Shown here: piece after piece, positions 15,511 to 57,525 of the stretch | Numbering within the stretch: position 1 is the stretch's first letter | Layout of the letters: every line of letters starts with the position of its first letter | NCBI GenBank assembly: GCA_902789265.1 | Contig: CADANR010000003.1 | Span: 5,603 to 69,602 of the forward strand | Reading direction: 5' to 3' | DNA from: an uncultured Lachnospiraceae bacterium | Lineage (GTDB): Bacteria > Bacillota > Clostridia > Lachnospirales > Lachnospiraceae | Length of the DNA: 64,000 nucleotides | The notes under the pieces: generated by a model | Database searches by the model: none | Told to the model about the DNA's origin: nothing | The model's input: only the letters and a program-made list of their open reading frames with translations | Position numbers and translations under genes: made by a program

Positions 15511-15711
15511 TTATACATCATAAAAATCTTTACCCGTCAGATCCTTGATATCAAAATCCATTTCCTCTTCTGTCGGGTCATAATCAAATACAAGTTCCTT
15601 CGGAACATGAGGTTTCGGTCCCGGAAGAACATTCTTAATCTCTTTTACAGATTCTGCAGCAGGTTCTGTTACAGTTTCTGTTACAGTTTCTTGTGCCTTC
15701 AGCAGTTTCAA
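15511..15711 (-). CDS. probable displaced C-terminus of the upstream 875-aa repeat protein (alternate frame)
   Basis: After a TTG pseudo-start it reads ...QETVTETVTEPAAESVKEIKNVLPGPKPHVPKELVFDYDPTEEEMDFDIKDLTGKDFYDV. This continues the ETVTE repeat of the neighbouring ORF and overlaps that ORF's out-of-character tail. Confidence 0.5.
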   Translation of the reverse strand: MKLLKAQETVTETVTEPAAESVKEIKNVLPGPKPHVPKELVFDYDPTEEEMDFDIKDLTGKDFYDV

Positions 15712-16850: not shown

Positions 16851-18262
16851 ATCACGTTGGTCTTGCGACTCTTACGCCCACCCTGCTTATTTTCTTTTTC
16901 AATCCTTTTGGCAAATTTAGCATTTGCCCTTTCTTTCCGCTTATTCTCAATATCAATTAACTGTTCCTTCATTGCCTCTTCCGATTCTGCCTCAACCGGC
17001 ATAAACAGAATTGCAATATAGCGAAGTCCGATAGCCCCGATCATTGTAAATACAAGGGACATCACAACTTCATAAGAAACATGATCCAAAGTTACGAAAT
17101 GGAATAAAACAAATACGATTGCCATTACCGCAAGAGGAAATACGCGGTCTTTCTTTGTTTTAACAAATTCCAAAAGCCATAGTCCCGCAAGCATATAGAT
17201 AATCGCAGACTCCCAGGTTCCGTAATACGGAGCAAGTATTGTTATGTCGATTCCGTCCCTCGGAACAAAAAGCATACCGTAACGGGCAATTCCGGTCAAT
17301 CCGGAAGGTGCGCCTGCCGGAAAGGCAAATAATGCAATCAGAAGAAATACGAGACCGCATCCGGCAAATACAAGGCTCTGCCAGGACGACTTATCGATTT
17401 TTTCCCTGATTTCCGTTTTAAACTTCATTTGATGGAATGCATAAATTGTAATCGGGAATAAGAAAAGTCCGGAAATATCAAAGTAAGCAATAAAGCCCGC
17501 AAATAATCCCGCAAGACCGAAATACAGCAAATGCCGGTTTTCTTCGATTTTTCCGTTTCTGTAATAATGAATGAGTTCCACAATACCCAAATAATATGCA
17601 CTGAGTAAGAAACCGTACATAAGCGCCGGTGTACAATAAAGGAACTGCTGGACGGATGCCGGCAGAAATGCAAGAAGAAGGAACGCAAACCACGCTGCCG
17701 CTTTTCCGACAGAGTTTCGAATTGCATAGAATACAAAAATCATAATTCCGAGAGAAAGAATGGCCTGTAGAACATAAACAACCACCAGGTTCTCTCCGAA
17801 AATGCCGAATAACATTTTGACCAAACCGGTAAATAAATATGCCCCGTTTTCACCGGTCCCGAGTGAAGGAATGTTTCCGAGAGCATATTCAATATATGCG
17901 CCGGTTCCTTTGCCTGTTCCGGCTCCGGTTTCATCAATGAAAAGTTTAATCGCACTCGAAAATCTTACAATCAGCGCAGTGATTGCAACCACGAATACGA
18001 ATACAACTTCCATAATGCCTTCGAGTTTTATGCCGCTTACACCAAATTTCTCTTCCACCGGCTTTTTCAAAGACTTAAATCCGATTGCGAGAATCGTAAT
18101 TCCGAGAATGAAAATACCATAGAATGCTCCGACATAAATCAGATATGCCGGATTCTCTGCCGCTTCCGATACACCGATTGCGGAAACACCGATTCCGGCA
18201 AAAACAATGACACAAAGAAAGCCCCAGATTATGTAATTGACAACGGATCTTTTAAAAATCAT
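15635..18262 (-). CDS. polytopic membrane protein (GT-C-like putative glycosyltransferase) with a long Thr/Glu/Ala/Val-rich repeat tail; the 3' end appears frameshifted
   Basis: The first ~450 aa are strongly hydrophobic and multi-pass; the rest is low complexity (ETVAE/TETV units). The ORF ends with the atypical Cys/Arg/Asn-rich tail EGTRNCNRNCNRTCCRICKRD. The ATG at 18262 abuts the stop of the GT2 gene. Confidence 0.6.
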   Translation of the reverse strand: MIFKRSVVNYIIWGFLCVIVFAGIGVSAIGVSEAAENPAYLIYVGAFYGIFILGITILAIGFKSLKKPVEEKFGVSGIKLEGIMEVVFVFVVAITALIVRFSSAIKLFIDETGAGTGKGTGAYIEYALGNIPSLGTGENGAYLFTGLVKMLFGIFGENLVVVYVLQAILSLGIMIFVFYAIRNSVGKAAAWFAFLLLAFLPASVQQFLYCTPALMYGFLLSAYYLGIVELIHYYRNGKIEENRHLLYFGLAGLFAGFIAYFDISGLFLFPITIYAFHQMKFKTEIREKIDKSSWQSLVFAGCGLVFLLIALFAFPAGAPSGLTGIARYGMLFVPRDGIDITILAPYYGTWESAIIYMLAGLWLLEFVKTKKDRVFPLAVMAIVFVLFHFVTLDHVSYEVVMSLVFTMIGAIGLRYIAILFMPVEAESEEAMKEQLIDIENKRKERANAKFAKRIEKENKQGGRKSRKTNVITLGKDVHMEAPAEETAEEVKTEVAGVVATETVATETPATENAVAESAATETVAIETPETSAKETTAADSTVETVKEEVEKAETSAETKTETVVETKPEAIAEIPTETKDETSEDTTSEIATETKPETVEEVKTETSVETKAEVPAETKTENAEEIKTETQTETVATAEPVAEEPAAAESKPVKKELPPYVPMKMAPRGRRGKMFSPVKKAEGDFESNPEYMNRPMLTKKVEEPETNTATAVESVLVARAMAAGEAAPVSETAAAGETVAATETVANTYETVASAENVTEIATETVAETVTETTVAPAAETVAETATDITTETTAEPVTETVPETVAEVTTETVAEVTTETAAEIPAETKPEAVTETVQDTSDNKAETKGIETAEGTRNCNRNCNRTCCRICKRD

Positions 18263-29448: not shown

Positions 29449-30246
29449 TTAAGTGAAATCCGTATTATTGTCGGAACCGTTATTGTCCGTTTTAGGTGCG
29501 AACGGGTCCTGGTAAGTATTACTGCTCTGTGATGCAAACGGATCCTGGTAGGTATTGCTGCTCTGTGATGCAAACGGATCCTGATAGGTATTGCTGCTCT
29601 GTGAAGCGAACGGATCCTGATAGGTATTGCTGCTCTGTGAAGCGAACGGATCCTGATAGTTCCCGCCATTCTGCGGTGCTCCGTAAGAATCCTGGTATCC
29701 GCCATTCTGCGGTGCTCCGTAAGGATCCTGGTATCCGCCGTAAGTCCCCTGAGCGCCGTAGTTGTTCTGCGTACCGTAACCGTTCTGATAACCGTCATAG
29801 GTATTTGAAGAATAATTTTCCTGATGATTTCTTAAAACATCTTCGGCATTCTTAATACCTGCAGCATAATTGCCCCAGGAATCAATGGTTGACTGCTCTC
29901 TGAAGGAACTGTCCAGCTGTTTCATGGAAATACCGGAAAGAACCCAGATTACAATACCGATCATGCATCCGACAATGGAGAATACCAGACTTACAATACA
30001 GGAAGCCAGGCAAAGCCCCAGTCCTTTTAATCTTCCTTCGTTATTCTTCATAAGAATTGCAGTATATACAATACAAGCTACCGCTATAATACCGCCAATA
30101 ACACGAATAACTGTCTGGATTGTCATAAGTGCGGAAGATGCATCAGCCCATCTGCCGATCATATAGACTGCAAATGTGACCAGATTCACACCGATGATAA
30201 TGCCGTTAATGAGTTTTCCCCGATTCGCAATTTCGTTTAATTCCAT
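29449..30246 (-). CDS. membrane protein (four hydrophobic helices) with a Gln/Tyr/Gly/Pro-rich tandem-repeat C-terminal tail
   Basis: 265 aa. The tail is GGYQDPYGAPQNGGYQDSYGAPQNGGNYQDPFASQSSNTYQDPFASQSSNTY... Confidence 0.7.
   Translation of the reverse strand: MELNEIANRGKLINGIIIGVNLVTFAVYMIGRWADASSALMTIQTVIRVIGGIIAVACIVYTAILMKNNEGRLKGLGLCLASCIVSLVFSIVGCMIGIVIWVLSGISMKQLDSSFREQSTIDSWGNYAAGIKNAEDVLRNHQENYSSNTYDGYQNGYGTQNNYGAQGTYGGYQDPYGAPQNGGYQDSYGAPQNGGNYQDPFASQSSNTYQDPFASQSSNTYQDPFASQSSNTYQDPFASQSSNTYQDPFAPKTDNNGSDNNTDFT
29498..29732 (-). repeat. 36-bp in-frame tandem repeats (12-aa units QDPFASQSSNTY x about 4.4, then GGYQD(S/P)YGAPQN x 2)
   Basis: Units begin at 29498, 29534, 29570, 29606 and 29642. 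The related 36-bp unit ccgccattctgcggtgctccgtaag(a/g)atcctggtat occurs twice after that. Confidence 0.9.
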
Positions 30247-31515: not shown

Positions 31516-31590
31516 CAGATGTCATGTATATTTTGCGAAGGGTGAGTTGCCACTGCATCCGAACCCTGAGCAAATATATACAGACATCTG
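31516..31590 (+). repeat. hairpin carrying a conserved 31-32-nt loop core (family 2, copy A)
   Basis: The arms cagatgtcatgtatatttt (31516-31534) and aaatatatacagacatctg (31572-31590) pair. The loop contains GCGAAGGGTGAGTTGCCACTGCATCCGAACCC (31535-31566). The same core recurs in reverse orientation at 60685-60717. Confidence 0.7.
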
Positions 31591-33021: not shown

Positions 33022-33079
33022 AGTTACTCCAATTTTAATAAATTTATAATGATTTTATATTGTTATATTAATAAACTGA

Positions 33080-33199
33080 GTGATTGACAGGTTACCGAAG
33101 CAGGCTCTATAGAACGGGAGCAACGCGTAACCTTTCTGTTTTCGTTTATGTAAAAATTGCGACCCTCTACGAGACTGCTGAGGTAATCCTGCAATCACG
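33080..33199. repeat. 120-nt imperfect-palindrome structured element (family 1, copy A)
   Basis: gtgattgacaggttaccgaagcaggctctatagaacgggagcaa...(variable ~33 nt)...attgcgaccctctacgagactgctgaggtaatcctgcaatcacg. A near-identical copy lies at 57392-57512, with compensatory changes in the stem. Confidence 0.75.
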
Positions 33200-33233
33200 A
33201 AGTGAGTCATTACATATACGCACACACTTTCTT

Positions 33234-33261
33234 ATTCTATCATTCTCTAAAACAATGTCAA
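33234..33261 (-). promoter_or_regulatory. candidate sigma-A promoter for the Re-citrate-synthase-like gene
   Basis: The minus strand reads TTGACA (33261-33256), a 16-nt spacer, then TAGAAT (33239-33234). It sits just downstream of the EF-G terminator and implies a ~200-nt leader containing the family 1 element. Confidence 0.5.
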
Positions 33262-37112: not shown

Positions 37113-40100
37113 TTATCGTGCTCCCGCATCATACAGTAATTCCCCAAGAACACGAATCAGGTTGTCCGCTTCCACGGGTTTGGTTAAATGTGCATTCATT
37201 CCTGCCTGTATGGAAAGCTTTGCATCCTCATCAAAAGCATTTGCCGACAACGCAATAATCGGGATTTGTTTTGCATCCTCCCTGTCCATGGAACGGATTA
37301 TTCTCGTCGCCTCCAGACCATCCATCTCCGGCATACGGACATCCATAATGATTGCCGAATAAATTCCGACAGTACTGTTTTTAAATAAATCAATCGCTAT
37401 CTTTCCGTTTTCGGCATGATCCGCTTTTATGTCTTCCATTTCGAGAATATCCATTATAATTTCCGCATTTAATTCCATATCTTCAGCAAGAAGAATTCTT
37501 CTTCCCGAAAGCTTTACACGATTCTTTTCCGTGAAAATATCCAGTTTACTACGTCTTGCAATATTCTCGATATTATCCAAAAGATTTGTAGTAAACAAGG
37601 GTTTCGGAAGAAAACCGTTCACTCCGACATTATTAGCTTCCGCCTGTATATCATCCCAGTTATATGCAGTCAGCGCAACAACAATACTCTCTTCGGAGTA
37701 CATCCTGTTGATTTCCGCAGAAGTTTCCGGGCCGCTCATTCCGGGCATATTCCAGTCCATAAGTACCATATTGTAAGGCCTATATTTGGCATGCTGCACT
37801 TCCATTTTACGTAATGCTTCCTGCCCGCTCGTGCACGTATCTGCCGCAATTCCGATTTCTTCAAGAACAATTCTTGCATGCTCCGCTTCAATCGGGTCAT
37901 CGTCAACGACCAGAATATAAAAGTTTGCCGGATCAATTGCATTTGTATGATTTACATTTTTTGAATTGGCATTTCCGAGTGATAATACAACTTCAAATTC
38001 CGTACCGATGCCTTTCTCGGATTTCACATTAATCGATCCGTTCATCATTTCCACAATCCGCTTGGTAATCGCCATTCCGAGACCGGTGCTTCCGTACTTT
38101 GTTTTATTTTCTGCATTCTCCTGTGAAAACGCCTCAAAAAGCTTCGGAATATAGTCTTTATCCATTCCGATTCCGGTATCCCTGATATCAAAACGAAGGG
38201 TGGAACGGTCTTCGTATTCCGCAATCTTTTCAACCGTCAGAATAATGTCTCCGGGTGCATCCGTAAATTTAATGGCATTTGACATGATGTTTAAAAGCAT
38301 CTCCCTGAGTTTCGTTTCATCCCCGAAAAATGTTCCGTTTACCATATTCACAAGACGGCACTCGTAATGAAGTCCCTTTTCATTGCACTGCGTCAAAACC
38401 ATGGTATTAATTTGTTCCAGAAGGGCAAATAAGGAAAATTCTTCCTTATGCATGAGCATCCGTCCGGATTCAATCCGGCTCATATCAAGAATATTATTGA
38501 TAATTCCGAGAAGATGTTTGGAGCTGTTGCCGATTTTTTCCAGATAATCACGGGTTTCGGGAGTCAGATCTTTATTTTTCAAAGCAAGAGCATTGAGTCC
38601 GATAATTGCATTCATCGGTGTGCGGAGTTCGTGACTCATACCGAAAAGAAATGCAGTCTTTGCTTTACTGGCTTCTTCCGCAGCTTCCAATGCTTCTGCG
38701 AGAACTTTGTTTTTCGCAATGGTTTCATGTATTTCCGCATCAACGTCCGTAATTCCCATGATAATATACTGCTCGTCTTCCATACGGGAAATTTTGATGG
38801 TAACGTAGTACGGACAGTTTTCTTTTACAATACGTGTGGTCATGACAAAAGTATCTTTCCGTTCCAAAGCTTTCATCAGTTCTTTACGTTTCATGGCCTG
38901 CAAGAATGCATTCCGGTCCTCTTCAAAAACCTTCCCTGCCAGTTCATTCCTGCAGTCACTGAAGAAATGCCATCCACGACGAACCTCGGAAAAGGAATGA
39001 TCCTCTTCGTTAATCTGATACTCAATATATTCTTCCGTATCCGTATTCACATAGTACATGTCCATGAAATCACGGGCCAGTATCTGTGCAATTCGCGAAT
39101 ACATAAGACCTGCACTAACCGCCTTTTCATATGCTTCCTTCGTCATGGCCTGCTCATGCTGAATGCTCACCATCTCCGTTACATCCTGGCACATACCGAG
39201 AACACAGAGTCTTCCCGACGTATCCGTATATTTTAATTTAGTTGTTTGTAACTGTCTGTGATTACCGGCAGCATCCGGAACATCCTCAAAGAAAACATAA
39301 GGTTTGCTTAAAGAAATTGCAATTTTATCATCCTCTGCGAAATGTTTTGCCGTTTCAGCATCAAAAATCTCTGCATCGGTAAGACCTGCCACTTCGTCAG
39401 GACTGTCTTTATGCGCATAATCGGCAAAACCCTGATTGCAGAAAATGTAAACACCGGTTTCGACATCTTTCGTAAATGTCATACCGGGCATATTGTCCAA
39501 AAGAGATTTAAACCTGTCTTTCAGCTCGTTAATCTTTTCCGCTTCTTCCCGGCTGCGCTTATGTTCTTCTTTTTCATCAATTGCGACAAAGGAATGCAAA
39601 AGACATGTCCCCAGCATATATGCAATGGAATAAAGCGGAAGATACGGAAACCATAACTGTGCAAAAAGACAGGCTGCCATGATGAATCCAAAAGCTGCCA
39701 GAGTTCTGTAGCGGTTACGTTTATCCGCAGATTTTACATTACGAATCATCGTCGCCAGAGAATAGACGGAAATGTTAAGCAACAATAAAATCTGGCATAC
39801 CAGCATAACATAACGGAACGGAAGTGCCTCGTAAACACATTTTTTATCCACAGTAAATAACACCGGTTTAAAAATATTTACAATAACCAGTACGGTGATC
39901 AATCCGGCAACAATACGGCTTGCAAAAATGAGAGCCTTTCCGTTCCTGTTCCTTTCTTCCAGATATATCACTGCAAATTCCGCCCAGAATAAGACTCCTG
40001 CCGACATTGCAATAAAATAGACGGTTGTATCTGCAAAAAGTGATTTCGGCATTTTTAAATATTCAAAAACACCCCAAATAATATCCGTTATATAATATGT

Positions 40101-40235
40101 CAAAACAGTAAGCAAAAATCGCCTGTATTTTTTCCATGCAGGTTTTTTAAATGAATCATCGGAATGAAACAGAATATCCCGGTTCACTATTATTAATACA
40201 AAGACTGCAAGCAGTCCGATTGCAGAATAATACAT
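37113..40235 (-). CDS. hybrid sensor histidine kinase: multi-TM N-terminal domain, two PAS-like modules, HisKA, HATPase and two receiver domains
   Basis: 1040 aa with H-box SHELRTPMNAIIG and G-box GSTGLGMAI. REC1 is YILVVDDDP...LMDWNMPGMSG; REC2 is RILLAEDME...IMDVRMPEMDG...TKP. Confidence 0.85.
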   Translation of the reverse strand: MYYSAIGLLAVFVLIIVNRDILFHSDDSFKKPAWKKYRRFLLTVLTYYITDIIWGVFEYLKMPKSLFADTTVYFIAMSAGVLFWAEFAVIYLEERNRNGKALIFASRIVAGLITVLVIVNIFKPVLFTVDKKCVYEALPFRYVMLVCQILLLLNISVYSLATMIRNVKSADKRNRYRTLAAFGFIMAACLFAQLWFPYLPLYSIAYMLGTCLLHSFVAIDEKEEHKRSREEAEKINELKDRFKSLLDNMPGMTFTKDVETGVYIFCNQGFADYAHKDSPDEVAGLTDAEIFDAETAKHFAEDDKIAISLSKPYVFFEDVPDAAGNHRQLQTTKLKYTDTSGRLCVLGMCQDVTEMVSIQHEQAMTKEAYEKAVSAGLMYSRIAQILARDFMDMYYVNTDTEEYIEYQINEEDHSFSEVRRGWHFFSDCRNELAGKVFEEDRNAFLQAMKRKELMKALERKDTFVMTTRIVKENCPYYVTIKISRMEDEQYIIMGITDVDAEIHETIAKNKVLAEALEAAEEASKAKTAFLFGMSHELRTPMNAIIGLNALALKNKDLTPETRDYLEKIGNSSKHLLGIINNILDMSRIESGRMLMHKEEFSLFALLEQINTMVLTQCNEKGLHYECRLVNMVNGTFFGDETKLREMLLNIMSNAIKFTDAPGDIILTVEKIAEYEDRSTLRFDIRDTGIGMDKDYIPKLFEAFSQENAENKTKYGSTGLGMAITKRIVEMMNGSINVKSEKGIGTEFEVVLSLGNANSKNVNHTNAIDPANFYILVVDDDPIEAEHARIVLEEIGIAADTCTSGQEALRKMEVQHAKYRPYNMVLMDWNMPGMSGPETSAEINRMYSEESIVVALTAYNWDDIQAEANNVGVNGFLPKPLFTTNLLDNIENIARRSKLDIFTEKNRVKLSGRRILLAEDMELNAEIIMDILEMEDIKADHAENGKIAIDLFKNSTVGIYSAIIMDVRMPEMDGLEATRIIRSMDREDAKQIPIIALSANAFDEDAKLSIQAGMNAHLTKPVEADNLIRVLGELLYDAGAR

Positions 40236-40261
40236 AAAACAATCCTCTTATACTGTTACAT

Positions 40262-43200
40262 CTAATGCTTTTTTCTGGCTTTTAAGATGCTCTTATTTTC
40301 ATACATCTTCTTATCCGCGCGTTCGTAAACGGCTGAAACCTTTTCATCCGCTTCATACCTTGACATACCTAATGCAATTACAACTCCGCCGTTTTCTAAA
40401 GCTTCATCATTATGGCAGTTAACCTGCTCTACGAGTTCATCAATATGTGCGTAATCATCCCCCTGGGACAGGACTGCAAACTCATCTCCGCCCACACGGA
40501 AAACAGGGCTTCTTTTGAACGTCATGCAGACAATTCTGCAGGCATCACGCAAATACTGGTCTCCTGCTTTATGTCCTTCATTGTCGTTTACCTTCTTTAA
40601 ATCATTAACATCCAGAATAATGATTGCGAATTCCGGAGCACGACCGATATTAATCTGTGCATTCAGTCTTTCTTCATAAACACGATATGCGTTCCTGTTC
40701 TTTACTCCCGTAAGCGCATCGATATTTGCTTCAATTCTGGCCTGGGCAAGACGTTTGCCGTATTCTTCTTCCTGGCGGACCGCCGCATCAATATCATTGT
40801 ATCCGATAATCAGTCGCTTTCCTTCATCCTCCTCTAACATTACGGCTTTCAACTGAACATATCTGGGTTCGCCGTCAAGCATAATCCGGTAGCTTAATGT
40901 AAAGAGTCCGTTCTTATCCACTTCGTCTAAAACCTTTTCCCTCGTTACCATCGAAATAAATAGTCCCTGGTCCTCAGGGTAAATCAATTTTTCTGCTTTT
41001 ATTCTGGAATCCGAGAAGAAATTTTCTCCCTCTCTGAATCGATCAAAACTTTCAAAATTCGAAGTTGCGCTGATTTCACGATACTGACATGTTTCCGGAT
41101 TTACAACATAGATACAGAAGAAATCACCGGCAAGTGCACTGATTCTGTTATATGCAATCTGTTCCTCTCGCATTTTAGCAGCGGCATTATGTTCATTCAT
41201 CTGCTCGCTGACATCCATTAATGCGATAATAATAAATCTGTTGTCATCCTGCATTCTGGTAATTTTCATGCTGACGTAACTCGGTTCTTCTTTCCCTTTG
41301 AGTCTTATTGTCATCATAAAATTATTGTTCTGGTCCAAATGTTTCTCCAGAGTCTTTCGGTCCATTGCGGCTTTTACGGCTTCCTGATCTTCCGGTAATA
41401 CATGTTCCTCAATAATGTCCATGCATTCTTCAAAGAAATGGAAACCTCTTCTGTTTTCAATCAAAGTACCGTTTTCATCATCCGTCAGATAACTGATAAA
41501 TTCTTCCGAATTTAAATCCACATAGAAAAGATTCTCGTAACCATGTGCCAGAGTCTGCGCAATGTGAGCGTAAATAATACCCGTACTTAAAGCTTTTTCA
41601 TAAGATTCCTTGGATCCGACACTTCCTCTTGTTATATGCACGAAGTCAGTAACATCCTGGAAAATACCGAGAATACATTCCCGTCCGGAATCGTCCGTAT
41701 ACTTTAATTTGGTTGTCTTAATCTGTTTTTTGCGTCCGGAAGCATCCGATAAATCATCATAGAATACATATGGACCATCCATGGACAAAGCCATATTGTC
41801 ATCTTCCGCATAACGTTTTGCGGTTTCTTCATCAAATAATTCCGAAGCGGTAAGTCCGACTACATCCTCCGGTTTTTTCTTATGCGCATAATCCGCAAAT
41901 GCCTGGTTGCACGCAAGATATTTTCCGGTTTTTGCATCTTTGGTATAGTTCATGCCCGGCATATTATCAAGAAGAGATGTTACCGTCTGTTTCAGATTGG
42001 CAATCTCCTCTGCCTCCTTTAACAATACCCTTTGTACATTGGCTGTCCTGTCCGCTTTAATTTTTTGAACAAGCAGGAAAATAATAATGGAGAATACCGC
42101 AATAAGAAGGAGCATGACAATCATCCAGTTATCCTTTAAAAACTGCATAAATGTAACTTTTTGATCAGCCTGCATGTAGGAAGCAAGTGCAGAATCCATA
42201 TCTTCGCTCTTGGTCAGTATCGTTGACTTATTCATTAAGAAGTAAAGTTCGGTATCCCATTTTCTTACAGCAAAAGAAAACGACATGTTTTCACCGGTAG
42301 GTACGGAAAATAAATTGTATTTTTTCAATGTTTCCTCTGCCGAAGGAATTCGGTAATTGCTGACTAATACTGCATCCGTTTTCCCATCCGCAACAGCTTT
42401 ATAGCAGGCAGGAAGTCCCGGATATTCCACCCTTTTTGTCTTGGGATAATGTTCCATAATAAAGGATTCGATATTCATCATTCCTTCATTTACCGCAAGA
42501 GTAATCGTACTGTCTTTCGAAAGTCTTTCCTGTTCCGAAACCCGCATAATAGCATTCATTTCCGTCTTCATGGCCGGATCCGTTAATCTTATATTCTTCT
42601 GATCTGCATCATAAGAGTTTAAATTAACCGGGAAATAGCAGTCTATCTCTCCTGCATCCATTGCAATAAGCGCTTCTTCCGTTGAATTGTAAGGAATTGT
42701 TTCAAATTGAATGTATGGTTTGTCTAAAACATTCTGCGAATGTATCAGATAATCCTTAAGCGCTCCGGTCAGTTCTCCGGTTTCATCATCCATATCGCAA
42801 AACGGCAGGTAATCATCCCGATATCCAATCCGTATGGTACCGTGTTCCTTAATCCAGTCTTCGATTTCCGGTGTAAGCGTCGTACTCGTTCTTACATCAT
42901 AGGTTCTTTGTTCCGTTATCATCTGATTGAAATACGGATCTTCATCATGGATTTCAGCTAAAGCCATATTCAGTTCGGCAAGCAGATCCGGACGTTTTTT
43001 GTTTACGGCATAATAATAATCGGAGCCGCCGATTCTGGCGGAAGGAATTAACATCTGTTCCGATTCATACATGTAGACGGATGCATATCCGTCAAGTTCG
43101 CCTTCAGAAACCATTTGCATGGAAACAGTTTCTTCCGCGGTAAGCGAAACGATTTCCAGATTCACTTTGTATTTTTCGGCCCATTCGCGAAGATACATTT

Positions 43201-43666
43201 CCTGAATACTGTCTTTGTTGACACCGACACGTTTTCCGTTTAAAGTTGACGGATCATCTGCTGCAATATCCCTGTTTTTCGAATCAATATAAATGTAATA
43301 AGATTCCGTTCCCATCGGGAGATCGGTAAAGGACATAAATTCTTCTCGTTCCGGCTTATATGACACATCGCTTAAAAGATCGATTTTCCCCTCCTTTAAC
43401 ATTTGAAAAAGATTGGGCCAGCTGTCTTCCACATATTCATATGTCCATCCGGTATAAGCAGAAATCTTCTGCTGATACTCATAATCGATACCGCATCTTC
43501 TTCCGTAATCATCATAATAACAGAATGACGAATCAAACCAGCCGACACGTACAACTTTGTGTTCCGGTTCATCAGCACGAGCCGTAACAGGAGCAAAAAG
43601 ATTTATTACAAATGTGAAAAGCAAAAGGAATATTATTATCCTTTTCGGAAATAGATTTCTTTTCAT
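40262..43666 (-). CDS. sensor diguanylate cyclase: signal peptide, two family-3 solute-binding domains, TM, PAS-like modules and GGDEF
   Basis: Start placed at ATG 43666 (MKRNLFPKRIIIFLLLF...ARADE), forming an ATGA overlap with the stop of the upstream gene. SBP_bac_3-like segments VVRVGWFDS... and TIRIGYRDDYLPF... TM MIVMLLLIAVFSIIIFLLV. Intact RVGGDEFAV motif. Confidence 0.85.
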   Translation of the reverse strand: MKRNLFPKRIIIFLLLFTFVINLFAPVTARADEPEHKVVRVGWFDSSFCYYDDYGRRCGIDYEYQQKISAYTGWTYEYVEDSWPNLFQMLKEGKIDLLSDVSYKPEREEFMSFTDLPMGTESYYIYIDSKNRDIAADDPSTLNGKRVGVNKDSIQEMYLREWAEKYKVNLEIVSLTAEETVSMQMVSEGELDGYASVYMYESEQMLIPSARIGGSDYYYAVNKKRPDLLAELNMALAEIHDEDPYFNQMITEQRTYDVRTSTTLTPEIEDWIKEHGTIRIGYRDDYLPFCDMDDETGELTGALKDYLIHSQNVLDKPYIQFETIPYNSTEEALIAMDAGEIDCYFPVNLNSYDADQKNIRLTDPAMKTEMNAIMRVSEQERLSKDSTITLAVNEGMMNIESFIMEHYPKTKRVEYPGLPACYKAVADGKTDAVLVSNYRIPSAEETLKKYNLFSVPTGENMSFSFAVRKWDTELYFLMNKSTILTKSEDMDSALASYMQADQKVTFMQFLKDNWMIVMLLLIAVFSIIIFLLVQKIKADRTANVQRVLLKEAEEIANLKQTVTSLLDNMPGMNYTKDAKTGKYLACNQAFADYAHKKKPEDVVGLTASELFDEETAKRYAEDDNMALSMDGPYVFYDDLSDASGRKKQIKTTKLKYTDDSGRECILGIFQDVTDFVHITRGSVGSKESYEKALSTGIIYAHIAQTLAHGYENLFYVDLNSEEFISYLTDDENGTLIENRRGFHFFEECMDIIEEHVLPEDQEAVKAAMDRKTLEKHLDQNNNFMMTIRLKGKEEPSYVSMKITRMQDDNRFIIIALMDVSEQMNEHNAAAKMREEQIAYNRISALAGDFFCIYVVNPETCQYREISATSNFESFDRFREGENFFSDSRIKAEKLIYPEDQGLFISMVTREKVLDEVDKNGLFTLSYRIMLDGEPRYVQLKAVMLEEDEGKRLIIGYNDIDAAVRQEEEYGKRLAQARIEANIDALTGVKNRNAYRVYEERLNAQINIGRAPEFAIIILDVNDLKKVNDNEGHKAGDQYLRDACRIVCMTFKRSPVFRVGGDEFAVLSQGDDYAHIDELVEQVNCHNDEALENGGVVIALGMSRYEADEKVSAVYERADKKMYENKSILKARKKH

Positions 43667-46626
43667 GCTTCTCCACCTCCACATTCCAGAATAAGACGGG
43701 CTATCGTCTCATATAATTTATCCGGTTCTACCGGTTTAGATAAATGCTCATTCATTCCGGCACAGATAGAGTCTTCCACATCATCATCAAACACATTGGC
43801 TGTCATTGCTATGATGGGAATACTTCCTGCATCTTCGCGGTTTAAAGCGCGAATAGTACGTGTTGCTTCCAGACCGTCCATCCTGGGCATACGCACATCC
43901 ATCAGAATTGCTGCATAATACCCCGGCATTTTTTCTTTAAACATCCGAACAGCCTCTAAACCGTCGCAAGCCCGTTCCGCAAGGATATCTTCCAGTTCCA
44001 GCAGATCGGAAAGTATTTCCGCATTTTGATCCACATCTTCTGCCATTAATATTCTCTTGCCTGCAAGAACGGTTTCGTAAGATACCGTTTCATTCTCCAC
44101 CATTATAGTGCGATTACTCTCGGAAAGACCTGATTTTGTATTCTCATCCGCACTTCTTTTTGATGCTTCAAGCGGAACAACTATTGTAAATGCAGTGCCT
44201 TCTCCCTTCTTACTTTCAACGGAAATCTCACCGCCCATCATTTCCACGAGATTTTTGGTAATTGCCAGTCCCAGACCGCTTCCACCGTATTTGTTGGTAT
44301 TACTGTCATCCTCCATGGAAAATGTATCAAAGAGATGCGGAATATATTCGGGATCCATTCCGATACCCGTATCCTTCATAATAAACCGCATTCTGCAAAT
44401 CCCTTCTTCTTCGGATAACTGTTCCACCGTAAGAAATACATCCCCCGGGGCATTGGTGAATTTTACGGAATTTCCGAGAATATTTATTAAAACCTGTTTC
44501 AGTTTTAAATCATCGCCGATATAATAATCCTTCATTTCGCCGATCACATCGCAATGAAAACTGAGTCCTTTTTCCTGACATTGTCCATTAATAATGATTT
44601 GAATCGGATCCAGAAATCCCTTGAATAAAAATTCCTCATTCTTCACACTCACATGTCCCGATTCGATACGGCTCATATCCAGGATATCATTGATTAAGCC
44701 AAGCAAATGTTTTGCGCTGATACCGATTTTTTCAAGATGATCTCTCGTGCGCGGAGTCAGGTCCGGCTCTTTTAATGCTATCGTCTGAAGACCGATAATG
44801 GCATTCATCGGAGTACGTATTTCATGACTCATATTCGAAAGGAAACTGGATTTTGCCCGTGATGTTTCCTCTGCACGCGCCTTTTCGATTTCAATCATTT
44901 TCTCTCTGTTTTGCAAAATGTTATATATATCCAGAAGAATCAAAAGAGCTACCGCAATGAGTCCGATCTGAATATAACTGGCAATACGCACGGAGCCTTC
45001 GACTTTCGAAGTTTCATCCTGAAGAAACAGACCATCCGAGGACTTAGCGAAAAAATCTTTATCATGTGTATTCATTTGTTTCCATACAGTACTCTCATAC
45101 TTTTCAAGTGCCTGATTCGTGGTTTGATGCATCCAGACCGTGGAAGTAAAAACAATGAGCCCCAAAAGAACTACCCATGCAATAATGGATTTCCCCATGC
45201 GGCGTTCGTGATCCCGCTTAATAAATACACGAAAATACAGGAAGCCGCATATACTCCAGACAGAAAGAATCATATAGGATTCCGTGGATAATGTGCTGAT
45301 GGAAAGAATATTCGGGATTAAAAATTCAATCGCAAAAAGGACGGATATTACAAGCCCGAGCAGTCCGAATATTTGATATTTTCTGTTATTATCCTTTCTT
45401 GCGGTTTTAAACGCGGATGCAGAAGCCATTGCATAAGCAATTGTAGCTCCGACCGTGGTAACATCCACAATCCAGCTGATTGCAGTTCTACCTAAAAGCG
45501 GAAAAATTGCAGAGAATAAAAGAATACTCAGAATTGCATTTCGCGGAACGAAATTTTTTTTCTTTCCGAGCCATTTAGGGAAAAGACCGTCTGAAGAAAG
45601 AGAATCCACAAGTCGGCTTAATGCAATATAATTACCGATTAATCCGGTAAAAATTCCTCCCATTGCGGCAATACCCAGAATCAAACTTCCATTCTTTCCC
45701 ATAGCCTGAAATGCCGCATGGAAAGTCGGTTGTGAAGCAGCTCCGGAATAGTTCCCGAGATTTCTGATATAATCTGTCCAGGAAGTGCATCCTTCCGGAA
45801 ATGTTTTTACTGCCATAAGGGATAATAAGATATACACAATCGTCGCCGTAATTACAGCAACAAGAAGTACGGGAAATGATTTTTTTAAGGAAAACTTTGC
45901 TTCCGCCGCAGAATGCGAGATGGATTCAAAACCGACAAAAGCCCATGGTGCAAGGGCAAAAATGGTAAATACACCGGATGCGGCACTTTTTCCCGGTGCA
46001 AATGCCGGGAAATATCCGCCGGTTCCGAATTTGCCGGCAACGACAACAAAACAAACGACCACGCCCATGAATAAAAGAACAGCCATAATAATCTGTGTAA
46101 CGGCAGCAGGTTTCCGAAACAGGCAAACCACAGCCGCAAGCACGAGCGCACATTCTGCCAGAAGAATTTCACCGACATAGATCGAATATCCTGCGAGATC
46201 ATAGAGATGACCGAATTGAAACAGATTACCGACAAGTGTCCTCATGATTAAAGGTAACGCAGTTGCATTCGCCCAGATAATTGCGATATAAGTCAGAATC
46301 AAAAACCATGCGCTTAAGAATCCCTGGTCGTATCCAAAGGCATTCTTTGTATAAGTATATGCCCCGCCGCCGTCCGGATAACGATTCATCAGATAGTGGT
46401 AATTAACGGCAATCAACAGCATAACCAATCCGCCGAGTCCGAGTCCGACAGTTGTTCCGACCGGACCCGCAATGGGTAAAAACGTGGTTCCGGGCATAAC
46501 AAAAGACCCCCAGCCCACACTGCACCCGAATGCAAGCGCCCATGCGCCGAGAAGTCCCAGATATTGTTTACTCTTTAAAGAAAAACCTTCCTCATTCATG
46601 AAATGTTCCACGATGCCCCCCGACAT
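43663..46626 (-). CDS. APC-superfamily permease domain fused to a histidine kinase and receiver (transporter-like hybrid sensor kinase)
   Basis: 987 aa. The N-terminal ~470 aa are permease-like (GAWALAFGCSVGWGSFVMPG..., many TM helices), followed by extra TM helices. H-box SHEIRTPMNAIIG, G-box GGSGLGLAI, REC RILMAEDVD...LMDVRMPRMDG...SKP. Confidence 0.8.
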   Translation of the reverse strand: MSGGIVEHFMNEEGFSLKSKQYLGLLGAWALAFGCSVGWGSFVMPGTTFLPIAGPVGTTVGLGLGGLVMLLIAVNYHYLMNRYPDGGGAYTYTKNAFGYDQGFLSAWFLILTYIAIIWANATALPLIMRTLVGNLFQFGHLYDLAGYSIYVGEILLAECALVLAAVVCLFRKPAAVTQIIMAVLLFMGVVVCFVVVAGKFGTGGYFPAFAPGKSAASGVFTIFALAPWAFVGFESISHSAAEAKFSLKKSFPVLLVAVITATIVYILLSLMAVKTFPEGCTSWTDYIRNLGNYSGAASQPTFHAAFQAMGKNGSLILGIAAMGGIFTGLIGNYIALSRLVDSLSSDGLFPKWLGKKKNFVPRNAILSILLFSAIFPLLGRTAISWIVDVTTVGATIAYAMASASAFKTARKDNNRKYQIFGLLGLVISVLFAIEFLIPNILSISTLSTESYMILSVWSICGFLYFRVFIKRDHERRMGKSIIAWVVLLGLIVFTSTVWMHQTTNQALEKYESTVWKQMNTHDKDFFAKSSDGLFLQDETSKVEGSVRIASYIQIGLIAVALLILLDIYNILQNREKMIEIEKARAEETSRAKSSFLSNMSHEIRTPMNAIIGLQTIALKEPDLTPRTRDHLEKIGISAKHLLGLINDILDMSRIESGHVSVKNEEFLFKGFLDPIQIIINGQCQEKGLSFHCDVIGEMKDYYIGDDLKLKQVLINILGNSVKFTNAPGDVFLTVEQLSEEEGICRMRFIMKDTGIGMDPEYIPHLFDTFSMEDDSNTNKYGGSGLGLAITKNLVEMMGGEISVESKKGEGTAFTIVVPLEASKRSADENTKSGLSESNRTIMVENETVSYETVLAGKRILMAEDVDQNAEILSDLLELEDILAERACDGLEAVRMFKEKMPGYYAAILMDVRMPRMDGLEATRTIRALNREDAGSIPIIAMTANVFDDDVEDSICAGMNEHLSKPVEPDKLYETIARLILECGGGEA

Positions 46627-46683
46627 TCATATTTTTATAAAAACATTTCACATTCTGAATAAATATTTCATTCTAAAACATAT

Positions 46684-47082
46684 TCATATTATATACTTTT
46701 GACCGGATCGTTCAACAGATTCTGCGTATCTTTTTATCCCCTCCACAGTATTCGCATACATGTTTCGAATCATCTCAATCTTTGTTTTTACTTCTTCATC
46801 CGAAAATTTCCTTGCACTGCCCGGACGATATTCTTCCGAAATCTCAGAAAACGCATCGGAAAGATTCATAAGCCCCAGATTTGAACAGACTCCCTTCAAT
46901 GCATGTGCCGTTTCAAACAGTTCCGTGGGATTCATGCTGTTTCCGGCAGCGAAAAAATTGTCCGAAACATTGTTTTCCGGAAACTTACGAATATGTTTAT
47001 CAATCAGTTTATCCATACGGAGAATCCGGACAGCCTGATCGTAATCGCCGTTTATATTTTGATATAATTCCTGAATTGTCAT
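46684..47082 (-). CDS. Hpt (histidine phosphotransfer) domain protein
   Basis: 132 aa with the phospho-His motif AHALKGVCSNLGL. Confidence 0.85.
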   Translation of the reverse strand: MTIQELYQNINGDYDQAVRILRMDKLIDKHIRKFPENNVSDNFFAAGNSMNPTELFETAHALKGVCSNLGLMNLSDAFSEISEEYRPGSARKFSDEEVKTKIEMIRNMYANTVEGIKRYAESVERSGQKYII

Positions 47083-47118
47083 GTAGAATCTTCTTTCAGC
47101 TTATAGCAGTTAAATTCT

Positions 47119-47177
47119 GTTTCATTTAAATCCGTTTCATTTATAGCTGTTTCATTTAAAGCTGTTTCATTTATAGT
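47119..47177. repeat. 15-bp direct repeat x4 (gtttcattta + 5 nt) between the DUF362 gene and the Hpt gene
   Basis: The copy core gtttcattta starts at 47119, 47134, 47149 and 47164, an exact 15-bp period. On the minus strand it reads TAAATGAAAC x4, followed by TATAAG and the Hpt ATG. Confidence 0.85.
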
Positions 47178-48302
47178 TTACTTCATCGTTATCAGTTCGT
47201 ACGATCTCGTACCGATACCGATTTTCTCTGCATGCTCCAGCGTTTCTTCCCAGGAAACATTCGGATTGCTGTTATGCCATACATCTCCGTGATCATGAAA
47301 ATGCTCACGCGCCATATTATCGCCGAGCTGGCTGTTTCTGATCGGCTCTGCTTTCTGGCAAAGATCCACGCATGCCTGGTCGAGTGCCACCGGATCAAAG
47401 GATGCCAGCATTCCGATATCGGGTAAAATCGGTGCATCATTTTCTCCGTGACAGTCACAGTTCGGAGAAACATCGGTAATTAAGCTGATATGGAAATGCG
47501 GTCTTTCGTTTAACACGGCAGCCGTATATTCGGCCATTTTTCTGCCGAGAATTGCAGCCGCATCCCAGTTATCGTTTTCGATTGCATCGAATGCACAGGC
47601 ACCGATGCAGCGTCCGCATCCCTTACATTTTTCCGGATCAATCCATGCTTTTTTATCCGTATAACTGATGGCATCCGAGCCGCATTCTTTTGCACATCTT
47701 CTGCATCCTTTACATTGTGCTTCAATTACATGGGGATGTCCCGAATTATGCTGCTGCATTTTTCCGGCACGACTCCCGCAGCCCATTCCGATGTTTTTGA
47801 TGGCACCACCGAAACCGGCCATTTCATGTCCTTTGAAATGATTTAAGGAAACCAGAATATCCGCATCCATTACGGCACGTCCGATATATGCTTCCTTACA
47901 GTATTCCCCATTCGGAACCGGTACCGCAATGTCATCCGTTCCGCGAAGCCCGTCGGCTATAAGAATCTGACAGCCTGTGGTAATTGTATTGAACCCGTTG
48001 ATGTTTGCGCAGTCCAAATGCTCGAGCGCATGCTTCCTGCTTCCCGGATACAGCGTATTGCAGTCGGTCAGAAACGGCAGTCCACCCTGTTCTTTAATCA
48101 CATCTGCAACCGCCTTTGCATAATTCGGTCTTAAATACGCAAGATTCCCGAGTTCTCCGAAATGCATTTTGATTGCCACGAACTTGCCGTTCATATCAAC
48201 GGAGCCGATGCCCGCCGTCTTAATCAGTTTTTGAAGTTTCGCAGTTAAGCTGACGCCCAAAACGGTTCTGAAATCGGTAAAATAAACTTTTGACTTCTCC
48301 AT
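47178..48302 (-). CDS. DUF362 domain protein with a 2x[4Fe-4S] ferredoxin insert
   Basis: Start at ATG 48302 (MEKSKVYFTDF), preceded by GGAGGAAG. Cys motifs CKGCRRCAKEC and CKGCGRCIGAC. Confidence 0.8.
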   Translation of the reverse strand: MEKSKVYFTDFRTVLGVSLTAKLQKLIKTAGIGSVDMNGKFVAIKMHFGELGNLAYLRPNYAKAVADVIKEQGGLPFLTDCNTLYPGSRKHALEHLDCANINGFNTITTGCQILIADGLRGTDDIAVPVPNGEYCKEAYIGRAVMDADILVSLNHFKGHEMAGFGGAIKNIGMGCGSRAGKMQQHNSGHPHVIEAQCKGCRRCAKECGSDAISYTDKKAWIDPEKCKGCGRCIGACAFDAIENDNWDAAAILGRKMAEYTAAVLNERPHFHISLITDVSPNCDCHGENDAPILPDIGMLASFDPVALDQACVDLCQKAEPIRNSQLGDNMAREHFHDHGDVWHNSNPNVSWEETLEHAEKIGIGTRSYELITMK

Positions 48303-48374
48303 CGGCTTCCTCCTTTTCTTATTCGGAATATTCAATATCCTAAGTCCCTTGATTCACCACATTTCATATGTTCT

Positions 48375-48403
48375 ATTTTAGTTTTTTACACCCTAAAAGT
48401 CAA
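48375..48403 (-). promoter_or_regulatory. candidate sigma-A promoter of the DUF362 gene (and possibly the signalling operon)
   Basis: Minus strand: TTGACT (48403-48398), 17 nt, TAAAAT (48380-48375). Confidence 0.5.
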
Positions 48404-48514
48404 TTTTCTACAGCATTTTACCTCCCGTTTCTATTATGCTTTTATAGCAGTTTTAAGTTCCTTTACAAGTTCCCACTCTTCATTCGTAAAATCAGGTAAT
48501 ATTTCTCTCTTTTT

Positions 48515-48549
48515 TCAAACAAAAATCCCGGCAAAATCCTGCCGGGACC
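48515..48549 (-). terminator. rho-independent terminator after the metallophosphoesterase gene
   Basis: Minus strand: TCCCGGCA-GGATTT-TGCCGGGA followed by TTTTTGTTTG. Confidence 0.8.
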
Positions 48550-48571
48550 AAGTATTTTCAAGAGAATCTTT

Positions 48572-49258
48572 CTAATCTATATTTTGAGGATAAATCGTCC
48601 AGAACGCACCTCTTAAATTTTTCGATAAATCCTTCTTCTTAATGTGGTTCTTCTTTCTTAAATCAAAATCAATAATATATTTATCATAACAGTTAACGAC
48701 CGTAGTTCCGGTCGGATGCACACTTTCGCGTTTAAAATTCCTATGACGGTAACTTGCATGCACATGTCCGTGAAGCATATATGTCGGATGTACACGCTCC
48801 AAAAACTCATTGAAGCAGGCGAAGCCTTTATGTGCATAATCCTCCATGTCACCGAAATCCAGGCAGGCTGCATGAGTAACCAGAACATCCACTCCGCCGT
48901 TTTTGATAATCTTCGGTTTTGCCTTACAAATCTTTGTACGCATCTGATCCTCGGTGTACATGTATTTACCGTTCGAATATTTTCTGGAACCGCCGAAGCC
49001 CACGAAACGAACCCCGTTAACGGTTACTACTTTTCCGTCAATATTAATGCAGCCCTCGGGCGGACGTTCGATATACTGTTTGTCATGATTCCCCGGTACA
49101 TAAAGAAGCGGAAGCCCCGTCATCGTAACCAGGAATTCCAGATATTCTGCGCGTAAATCCCCGCAGGATACAATTACATCAACATCCTTCACTTTGTCCG
49201 GGGTATAGTAATCCCAGAGTGCTTTTGATTCGTCATCCGAGATGGCTAGGATTTTCAT
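48572..49258 (-). CDS. calcineurin-like metallophosphoesterase
   Basis: 228 aa with motifs VSCGDL, VPGNHD, VTHAA and GHVH. ATGA overlap with the upstream gene. Confidence 0.8.
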   Translation of the reverse strand: MKILAISDDESKALWDYYTPDKVKDVDVIVSCGDLRAEYLEFLVTMTGLPLLYVPGNHDKQYIERPPEGCINIDGKVVTVNGVRFVGFGGSRKYSNGKYMYTEDQMRTKICKAKPKIIKNGGVDVLVTHAACLDFGDMEDYAHKGFACFNEFLERVHPTYMLHGHVHASYRHRNFKRESVHPTGTTVVNCYDKYIIDFDLRKKNHIKKKDLSKNLRGAFWTIYPQNID

Positions 49259-51231
49259 AACGGTCTCCTGTAAAGAGGAATGGTTCCTTCAATGTTTTCA
49301 TTGAGCCAATCCATTTCTATAATTTGTCCGGCGTTCATCTTTTTCAGTTCATGAGGAAGCTTTAATGCCTTACCCATACTGCCTTCGTTAATTACTTCCG
49401 TCTGGGAATGAATCTCTCCTGAGAACGGATCCATCCCCCCGTAAACCATGGCATTCTTAAAGAATGCCATCATTTTTTCCGTCTGGAACGGCAAATTCGG
49501 CGCACGCAGTCCTACCACACCGGTAGAAAGGCCAAACCAGTAGTTAGTCGGTGATGTGGTCTTATCCTGCTCGTTAATATCCCAGGCACCGGAAATCACC
49601 GACTGAATAATCATGGAATAAAATTTACCCCAAAGAATATACGGTGCTCCGATAAAATAATCCTGGTTTACAGTACCGGGCTGGGCCGCATTCATTTCAT
49701 CCGTGGTAATGTTCTGATTAATCTGGAACAGTCCGCTTTTATATCTTGCACCATGTGTTGCGGAATATTCAAGGTCGGCATAAAGCAAAACGCCCTCGTC
49801 AATCCACTCGTCACGGTAATGATCATGCTCGCCGTCGCCCGTGTATTTTAAAGAAACCTTACATTCCGGATCCACAATGGAAACACCGATTGCAAATGCA
49901 TTTAAATTTGCATAGGTACGGGAATGTACGGAATGAACAAGATAACCGACTCTTCTGTCCGTCGGGGAATATCCTTTTGTCAGCATCAGGTTTGCCGCCA
50001 GCACACCGGTTAAAAATGTGGCTTCATACAGTTTTCCGTGATAACAGCGGAAGGACGGATGCGGCTGTCCGATGGAACAGTTTAAAAATTTAATTGTCGG
50101 ATTCGCAATGGCAAGCTGCAGTGTGTTTGTGGCCATTTTGGAAGAAACCGTAAAGATGACTTCGTTCTTATCATCAATGGCTTCCTGAATCACTTCATTA
50201 GCATCGCTGTCATCGGATTTCGCCTGGTAGGTTTTAGATACAACACGGTTTCCGATGATTTCCATCGCATAGATTCTGCCGGCTTCATGCGACTCCACCC
50301 ATCTGGAGTTATTCATATCCTCATCATAGATAAAGGCAACCCTGAGCGGATTCGACGCCGTATAATTCTTGTTATGGTTAAAGATTTCAAAAAGGTTGAC
50401 GGTCTTCTTTTCTACCGCAGGAGTATCGGATAAAAATTCGATATCCTCGACCTTCGTGCTGGAACGAAGCTCCTGTCTTGCCATTTTGATATTCTTAATA
50501 ATCTGATCTTCCGTATCTTCAAAGAGCGATTTCACCGGGAAAACGGATAAGTACAGTAAAAATGCATCCGATACAACCCACCGGTCGCTTTCCTTGATAA
50601 TGGAATGATAAAGTTTCGCAAACTGGAAGAAAGCCGCTTTTAAATCCTGCAGAACCACATCATCCCATATATGCTCCAAATCCTGACCCAAAAGGTCCGC
50701 AAGTTTTGCATATCCGCCGGGTTCGGTAAAGGTAATATAGAATGCCCTGGTCACATTAAAGAAGTCCAGATATTCATAGTAAACCTTTAATTCCTTGCTA
50801 TCTCCCTTCGGCGGAAGAATTCTTGTTACCTCGGAGTGAATGAAGCCCATTTTTAAATAATTGGAAACCGAAACACGCTTGTTTCCTTCCTGAACATAGT
50901 AATTATTCAGATATTCATAGCATTTAATTCCGGTATGTACACCTTCTAAGCGAACGGATTCGCAAAGATTCGACCACTTTGTGGCAAACTCGGTTCTGTC
51001 ATCCAAAAGGGGCATAAAATTATTGGCAAACGCATTGTTTCTGGACATTTCCTTATTACCGACAATATAATTGACCGGCAATTCCAAAACTCCGATATAT
51101 GCTTCGCCGACTGAATCCTTTATTTCGGGAATGGCATCCAAAACCGGAAGGTATGGGGATTTTCCTTCCTTCATTGCTGCCTTCGCAGCTACCTCTCCCA
51201 TTCGTTTTGCAATCTGATAATCTTCTGACAT
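49255..51231 (-). CDS. cytoplasmic protein: ParB/Srx-like N-terminal domain, helical middle region and a BMP (Med/PnrA-type, nucleoside-binding-like) C-terminal domain
   Basis: 658 aa with no signal peptide or lipobox. N-terminus IKCYEYLNNYYVQEGNKRVSVSNYLKMGFIHSEVTRI (ParB-like pattern). C-terminus LRVAFIY...TIKFLNCSIG...RVGYLV...DYFIGAPYILWGKFY...WLNENIEGTIP (BMP-like). Confidence 0.6.
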   Translation of the reverse strand: MSEDYQIAKRMGEVAAKAAMKEGKSPYLPVLDAIPEIKDSVGEAYIGVLELPVNYIVGNKEMSRNNAFANNFMPLLDDRTEFATKWSNLCESVRLEGVHTGIKCYEYLNNYYVQEGNKRVSVSNYLKMGFIHSEVTRILPPKGDSKELKVYYEYLDFFNVTRAFYITFTEPGGYAKLADLLGQDLEHIWDDVVLQDLKAAFFQFAKLYHSIIKESDRWVVSDAFLLYLSVFPVKSLFEDTEDQIIKNIKMARQELRSSTKVEDIEFLSDTPAVEKKTVNLFEIFNHNKNYTASNPLRVAFIYDEDMNNSRWVESHEAGRIYAMEIIGNRVVSKTYQAKSDDSDANEVIQEAIDDKNEVIFTVSSKMATNTLQLAIANPTIKFLNCSIGQPHPSFRCYHGKLYEATFLTGVLAANLMLTKGYSPTDRRVGYLVHSVHSRTYANLNAFAIGVSIVDPECKVSLKYTGDGEHDHYRDEWIDEGVLLYADLEYSATHGARYKSGLFQINQNITTDEMNAAQPGTVNQDYFIGAPYILWGKFYSMIIQSVISGAWDINEQDKTTSPTNYWFGLSTGVVGLRAPNLPFQTEKMMAFFKNAMVYGGMDPFSGEIHSQTEVINEGSMGKALKLPHELKKMNAGQIIEMDWLNENIEGTIPLYRRPL

Positions 51232-51295
51232 ATAAAACTCCTTTAATCAGCCATCCCCATCCGAAAAAACTCACTCCAAAAATCGGATCAATAAA

Positions 51296-52093: not shown

Positions 52094-52123
52094 TTTTCTG
52101 TCTTTAATCAACCCAACATCTCT

Positions 52124-57354: not shown

Positions 57355-57391
57355 GCCAACCCATTTTTAATCTTAATACTCCTGTCAGCAA

Positions 57392-57512: not shown

Positions 57513-57525
57513 CAGCAAACAGTAT

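Follow-up and report, generated by a model that had tools for sequence, protein, structure and literature searches.

We analysed a 64,000-nt stretch of DNA (the window) from an uncultured Lachnospiraceae lineage for which the sample names RmDRAFT, STEW19 and XIEF21 point to a rumen origin. Nearly all genes in the region lie on one strand, no transposase or recombinase gene is present in the window, and a search for exact records of two window proteins found none. Two intergenic spacers carry copies of a short imperfect palindrome, which we call Family 1. Copy A occupies the 5' leader of an operon encoding an HMGL-like synthase and an isocitrate dehydrogenase, 56 nt before the synthase start codon, and is preceded by the terminator of the EF-G gene (33303-33268) and then by a strong promoter-like site. 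Copy B begins 13 nt past the polA stop codon, about 23 nt past the -10 hexamer of a second promoter-like site, and ends 35 nt upstream of a gene encoding a CoaE-FtsA-like fusion protein. The features at these two sites are:

33080 to 33199, minus strand: Family 1 copy A, a 120-nt imperfect palindrome (model R1, 137 bits)
57392 to 57512, minus strand: Family 1 copy B, 121 nt, in the spacer from polA to the coaE fusion gene (model R1, 129.5 bits)
33234 to 33261, minus strand: promoter-like site outside the element, TTGACA-16-TAGAAT, TG-extended, about 35 nt upstream of copy A
57535 to 57562, minus strand: promoter-like site outside the element, TTTACA-16-TATGAT, TG-extended, inside the end of polA

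A first-pass annotation of this DNA had placed two copies with near-identical arms at these coordinates, each behind a plausible minus-strand promoter, and our analysis recovers both the copies and the promoter-like sites. The arm 21-mers occur exactly twice each in the 64-kb window, with 0 occurrences expected by chance. On the gene (minus) strand copy A reads C-GTGATTGCAGG...CCTGTCAATCAC, and the terminal inverted repeat GTGATTG(A)CAGG(A)TTACC is found at both ends of both copies, in the common layout [6 nt]-C-GTGATTG...AATCAC-[6 nt]. The central 33 nt had been described as completely different between the copies; they are in fact equal in length and identical at 20 of 33 positions without gaps, and are thus diverged, not unrelated. 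The earlier view that the element is non-coding is upheld: copies A and B share no ORF and no frame is open in both, and a composite of all stop-free element translations has no relatives among 5.8 billion proteins. We also ran the comparison with Rfam that the annotation had proposed. Rfam 15 covariance models yield 0 matches at gathering score across the whole window, and no family matches the element itself at gathering score or down to E<=10.

Both copies fold as one long rod on either strand, in agreement with the imperfect hairpin drawn in the first-pass annotation. Predicted energies are -46.0 kcal/mol (plus) and -42.8 kcal/mol (minus) for copy A, with z-scores of -5.6 and -5.3, and -39.7 (plus) and -38.0 kcal/mol (minus) for copy B, with z-scores of -4.6 and -4.0. 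The three double substitutions that had been said to preserve pairing between A and B are present, at 3 of 36 arm pairs, a number that 48 of 100,000 random placements attain. Likewise as described, a 2x2 internal loop reads GA/GA, a 5'-YGAR-3' tandem G-A, on the plus strand only and UC/UC on the gene strand, and all three copies (A, B and a third, C) retain it. Every copy has a GTAG (CTCGTAGAGGGTCGCAA) on the 5' side of its inner stem, paired inside the rod (GUAGA/UCUAU). Signals as to which strand matters conflict. G-U pairs and two arm substitutions in strain contig L010, both C-to-T on the gene strand and giving G-U in the sense RNA, point to the gene strand, whereas the G-A loops, energies lower by 1.6-3.2 kcal/mol and a substitution in the L001 variant that gives a G-U pair only on the plus strand point to the plus strand.

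Short direct repeats flank both copies at identical offsets:

33074 to 33079, no strand: copy A flanking 6-bp direct repeat, AACTGA on the plus strand and TCAGTT on the gene strand (5/6 match to 33200-33205)
33200 to 33205, no strand: copy A flanking 6-bp direct repeat, AAGTGA on the plus strand and TCACTT on the gene strand
57386 to 57391, no strand: copy B flanking 6-bp direct repeat, CAGCAA on the plus strand (6/6 match to 57513-57518)
57513 to 57518, no strand: copy B flanking 6-bp direct repeat, CAGCAA on the plus strand

Read along the gene strand, the flanks are TCACTT and TCAGTT for copy A and TTGCTG and TTGCTG for copy B. The joint score of 11/12 at one common offset is reached in 4 of 20,000 flank shuffles, which bears out the earlier suggestion that AACTGA/AAGTGA and CAGCAA/CAGCAA are target-site duplications in so far as the repeats are present and in register. 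The left flanks of A and B have no tetranucleotide in common, and among the strains compared there is no virgin empty site at either A or B.

A third, diverged member of the family was found by an nhmmer profile search outside the window:

L049:12322-12449: Family 1 copy C, about 450 nt beyond the left edge of the window

Copy C is also present in L050, L051 and L053. It lies 10 nt past a MurJ-like gene and 38 nt before a gene for an aminoacetone-oxidase-family flavoprotein (an FAD enzyme), with no promoter-like site before it and no convincing duplication in its flanks. Only the inner core is common to C and A/B, TCTCGTAGA.G.TCGCAA ... TTGCTC..GTTCTATAGAGCC, and the element ends are GTGATTGCAGGATTACC in A and B and GCGAGTCAGACAG in C. 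The outer arms of copy C differ in sequence and are still fully complementary to each other, all internal loops fall at matching positions, and the rod is again strong (z -5.2 and -6.1). Family 1 is thus known from three unrelated loci in about 74 kb: A between the EF-G and synthase genes, B between polA and coaE, and C between the MurJ-like and aminoacetone-oxidase-family genes. The copies measure 120-128 nt and all have the same orientation relative to the genes, a bias that is not significant (p = 0.25). Conservation of the core and loops but not of the terminal repeats is the opposite of what a typical family with terminal inverted repeats displays. A separate idea, that the UC/UC loop is a 2-bp duplication left by a nested inner insertion, was dropped: the termini of the inner 4-5-bp stem differ in all three copies too.

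Copy C also bears on the earlier claim that compensatory changes reveal selection on the structure. In an alignment of seven variants, representing about three independent sequences, 94.1 % of cells pair; sliding the partners lowers this to 38-44 %. Of 39 pairs, 14 are changed on both sides. The case for a maintained structure is strengthened by these figures; the step from there to selection on RNA is not, as it is inseparable from inverted-repeat processes acting on DNA. Paired changes and complementary arms also arise without RNA selection, through matched pairs of terminal inverted repeats and through template-switch correction of quasipalindromes.

Comparison between strains shows that the element comes and goes at both sites. 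Among contigs with a 100 %-identical synthase the upstream spacer varies, and copy A is present in most. L006 lacks exactly 122 nt at copy A, leaving the junction TCACTT+AGTT, and L008 lacks copy A together with part of the leader; both encode a 100 %-identical synthase. The promoter-like site at 33234-33261 is kept in strains with and without copy A. We best read the L006 allele as a slippage deletion. The junction TCACTT+AGTT is the expected product of replication slippage between TCACTT, the left duplication, and TCACTC, formed by the element end plus 2 nt, and because L010 retains the element, with three substitutions, on the same flank haplotype, L006 represents a loss and not a virgin site. 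Taking L006 instead for a clean empty site without duplication, which would have suggested an HUH-type element, was rejected: A and B in register show 6-bp repeats, and L006 keeps TCACTT+AGTT. At the second site, copy B is present in L011 and L032-L034, and the entire polA-coaE spacer is different, with no copy B, in L030 and L031. L030 and L001, a carrier of copy A, belong to the same 227-kb contig, where the polA-coaE spacer is unrelated to that of the window. More widely, about 130 kb from strains with P0003/P0006-type synthase variants contains no Family 1 copy, the synthase site included, the element is absent from the synthase leaders of L035-L048, and in L035, from a related lineage, that leader is without any hairpin. 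A look-up based on FTHFS yielded only strains already in the set.

These comparisons contradict the hypothesis favoured by the first-pass annotation, that Family 1 is a CoA-related riboswitch or leader RNA controlling an acetyl-CoA-condensing enzyme and dephospho-CoA kinase. Its appeal lies in the position of A and B between promoter-like sites and start codons and in the downstream genes, an HMGL-like synthase and a protein with a dephospho-CoA kinase domain (TIGR00152, 132.6 bits; cutoff 65.55). The synthase scores below every NCBIfam equivalog cutoff, and its CoA chemistry is therefore only presumed. Strain-variable presence at both sites makes the element dispensable and so rules out a conserved leader function: it is missing before the identical synthase in L006 and L008, missing in related strains with the P0003/P0006 variants, and replaced before coaE in L030/L031. 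Copy C precedes a flavoprotein gene unrelated to CoA. Neither conservation before orthologous genes across strains nor a consistent downstream function, both expected of a riboswitch, is seen. Neither a ligand pocket nor an expression platform is obvious in the near-perfect rod, the ribosome-binding sites lie 35-56 nt past it and are unpaired, and Rfam holds no match. We regard control of these genes by a common CoA leader RNA as barely credible. The coaE fusion is of interest in its own right: at 54745-57354 (minus strand) a single 869-aa ORF joins the dephospho-CoA kinase (TIGR00152) to a long FtsA/EutJ/PilM-like actin-fold ATPase region, an unusual combination.

A second type of rod, Family 2, occurs in the same neighbourhood:

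31517 to 31590, minus strand: Family 2 rod, 74 nt, in the synthase-to-Iso_dh spacer (pair I1; 16.9 bits with the Family 1 model, E about 0.01 over the window)
60677 to 60723, plus strand, the opposite orientation: second Family 2 copy, partly decayed (9.8 bits)

Its module, UUUGC-UC-AGGGU ... ACCCU-UC-GCAAA, has the order stem, UC-UC 2x2 loop, stem that is seen in Family 1, and a U/C mismatch is likewise kept in copies A, B and C and in Family 2 while the adjoining stems turn over. Family 2, whose match to the Family 1 model is weak, may be a relative of Family 1. It is also strain-polymorphic (L039:8579-8642; L030:3978-4025; L008:4441-4513) and covarying: where the window has AGGGT/ACCCT, L008 has GGAGT/ACTCC. 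In L039-type strains Family 2 sits in the EF-G-synthase leader, and L030/L031 have it between polA and coaE; these are the two spacers that carry Family 1 in the window. Such alternation of small rods in the same spacers is expected of permissive intergenic landing sites.

Other inserts were observed in these spacers. The synthase-to-Iso_dh spacer measures 125 nt in the window and 31 nt in some other strains, and in L041 (1590-1790) and L043 it is filled by a GC-rich insert of about 200 nt with no Rfam match at gathering score. In the synthase leaders of L039 (8480-8575) and L045 (620-745), the promoter is separated from the Family 2 rod by two to three tandem units (GGCTCGCACGACGTCATCACGATAT), each about 25 nt long, and their copy number varies by strain. 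L008:2825-2915 is an unrelated GC-rich insert between the EF-G terminator and the promoter, with the hairpins GCGCAGGGCTGCG...CGCAGCCCGCGC and CGAGTAGGGA...TCCCTACTCG; a 55-aa ORF is called over it, and it has no Rfam match.

We propose that Family 1 belongs with the bacterial MITEs, as a small, non-autonomous palindromic repeat resident in an uncultured rumen Lachnospiraceae lineage, and we put the probability of this reading at roughly 70%. Bacterial MITEs are under about 200 bp, have terminal inverted repeats and target duplications, lack a transposase gene and give rise to a long RNA stem-loop (PMC3184786). We assign Family 1 to them because it is short and without an ORF, has terminal inverted repeats, has flanking duplications at A and B, occurs as dispersed copies whose presence or absence varies between strains, and is predicted to form a long stem-loop. 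The copies are paralogous and show no link to gene function. The first-pass annotation had listed a MITE-like repeat as the counter-argument to its own hypothesis, and the near-perfect rod and flanking duplications that it cited were the right clues. Several observations count against the MITE assignment: the window has no transposase or recombinase gene, only three loci are known, copy C has the core with different terminal inverted repeats and no convincing duplication, and neither A nor B has a virgin empty site among the strains compared. The single orientation of all copies is, moreover, what a functional RNA would also show.

The closest descriptions in the literature are those of the ERIC, Correia and RUP repeats (Delihas 2011, PMC3184786), which are of similar size (ERIC about 127 bp, RUP 107 bp, Correia about 104-157 bp) and resemble Family 1 in being imperfect palindromes with one stem-loop and no ORF, in transcribed spacers, with flanking direct repeats and strain variation. 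Family 1 differs from the ERIC type in having a 6-bp flanking repeat in place of TA (PMC3184786), and from all three in its rumen Lachnospiraceae host and in a copy, C, with other terminal inverted repeats round the same core; the likeness drawn here is one of description. The BOX and SPRITE repeats of Streptococcus pneumoniae (PMC3184786) are comparable as Firmicute intergenic repeats with predicted RNA structure that are co-transcribed and coexist as several unrelated families per genome. BOX is, however, modular, with tandem sub-units, and SPRITE is terminator-like (PMC3184786), whereas Family 1 is a single rod and its copy B lacks a U-tract. Our search for literature on MITEs in Lachnospiraceae found nothing relevant.

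Under the MITE reading, copies would have inserted at unrelated intergenic spots, A and B each making a 6-bp target duplication, with transposition activity presumably supplied by a transposase encoded elsewhere in the genome. The window contains no longer element or parent insertion sequence with matching terminal repeats, and a scan of viral contigs gave only seed-length matches. Exact-arm scans of genome contigs (19-mer), metagenome contigs (18-mer) and viral contigs (four patterns) likewise returned only seed-length chance matches or none, as checked by blastn and nhmmer; exact patterns would miss copy C, and these negatives therefore understate the distribution. Plasmids and phages gave no match to the element in a distant blastn search. 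Once in a transcribed spacer, a copy would probably be co-transcribed with the flanking genes, and the transcript would fold there into a long hairpin, within the 5' leader in the case of A and B and within an intercistronic spacer in that of C. Such a hairpin could incidentally alter mRNA stability without any sensing of a ligand. Copies may be lost by hairpin-stimulated slippage between short direct repeats, as in L006, or by allelic replacement of a whole spacer, as in L030/L031.

Two further explanations take the conserved fold as their starting point. Family 1 could be a structured RNA module under selection, whether an mRNA-stabilising or processing hairpin, a protein-binding site or a plus-strand antisense RNA with a stacked tandem G-A, and mobility would then be its means of spreading. 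The rod and loop positions are kept despite the different outer arms of copy C (94 % paired cells, 14/39 double-side changes), three compensatory pairs separate A from B (48/100,000 random placements), and the UC/UC loop and U/C mismatch recur in three copies and in Family 2. The L010 arm substitutions that give G-U in sense RNA, the sense orientation of all three copies, the start of A and B 16-27 nt after promoter-like sites and the alternation of Families 1 and 2 at the same two leaders would fit as well. This reading must nevertheless accommodate an element that is dispensable and absent beside identical flanking genes, and an L035 leader with no hairpin; inverted-repeat DNA gives paired changes without RNA selection, the strand signals conflict and only three independent sequences contribute. 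We consider an RNA module unlikely.

Alternatively, the element could be a single-strand DNA hairpin, REP/REPIN-RAYT-like or IS200/IS605-derived, that owes its mobility to an HUH tyrosine transposase; the enzyme would recognise the folded core, its loops and the GTAG instead of the terminal sequences. A conserved core within outer stems that vary yet stay paired is consistent with such recognition, as is the single orientation of the copies in a region with nearly all genes on one strand. The 5'-YGAR-3' tandem G-A is, in addition, stable in DNA hairpins. IS200/IS605-derived miniature elements are hairpin-rich, non-coding and strand-specific, much like the singly oriented Family 1, but their hairpins are separate and subterminal, and they lack both terminal inverted repeats and a target duplication. 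Family 1 stands apart from them as a single rod with terminal inverted repeats and 6-bp duplications, which are not products of this mechanism, and with left flanks of A and B that share no target tetranucleotide. A Y1 transposase is found neither in the window nor in about 74 kb of this lineage's genome. The conserved GTAG directly 5' of the inner stem recalls the tag cleaved by RAYT in REPs (PMC3733652). REPs are palindromic units of 20-40 bp, one end of which carries an unpaired GTAG or CGTC, and REPINs are two inverted units (PMC3733652); like Family 1, they are hairpin intergenic repeats, mostly between co-directional genes and thought to be co-transcribed, with GTAG beside the stem and structure conserved more than sequence (PMC3733652, PMC3116915). 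Family 1 falls outside the REP unit definition of PMC3733652, however: its arms are not self-palindromic 20-40-bp units, its GTAG is paired inside the rod with no unpaired tag at the end, it has 6-bp duplications, no RAYT is seen in about 74 kb, and PMC3733652 reports no GTAG REPs from Firmicutes. An HUH-mobilised hairpin is in our view very unlikely. An integron attC site was rejected on sequence, with no RYYYAAC/GTTRRRY end boxes and no cassette context.

A broader and rather improbable idea would unite the two families as one class of structure-defined Lachnospiraceae hairpin replicators. A folded core with fixed loops, among them the 5'-YGAR-3' tandem G-A, might, in place of a terminal sequence, be recognised and copied by a dedicated single-strand-specific enzyme, a Firmicute counterpart of REPIN-RAYT, or the rods might be interchangeable modules of RNA, tolerated or put to use by the host in the leaders of operons. 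The pattern of conserved core and variable arms, together with the common tandem G-A loop, is worth a second look.

With Family 1 read as a MITE-like repeat, our analysis adds a small, previously undescribed family of repeats from uncultured rumen Lachnospiraceae, whose intergenic spacers change fast from strain to strain. It also disposes of a false riboswitch candidate: the hairpin that shows compensatory changes in the leaders of two "CoA" genes looked regulatory, but on strain comparison it is dispensable and probably a mobile repeat. Such elements have consequences for strain typing, for the assembly of metagenome-assembled genomes and for motif-discovery pipelines that take covariation as evidence of a functional RNA.

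Several other features of the region were noted in passing. A signalling block of about 15 kb (37113-52111), with two hybrid histidine kinases, an SBP-PAS-GGDEF protein, an Hpt protein, DUF362 and others, separates HIGH_NTase1 from DUF711, which are neighbours in the related strains L035 and L039; it looks like a lineage-specific insertion without a mobility gene. In one strain, L049:17315-18673 is a gene-free gap of about 1.36 kb; L050 and L051 have a gene for a 414-aa aldehyde dehydrogenase at that place, and the gap may be a pseudogene or a replacement. Two coding regions of the window carry strong internal periodic repeats and probably encode low-complexity repeat proteins: at 15635-18262 a 12/24-nt periodicity extends across about 1.2 kb of an 875-aa ORF, and at 29449-30246 four to five 36-nt tandem units occupy 29497-29676.
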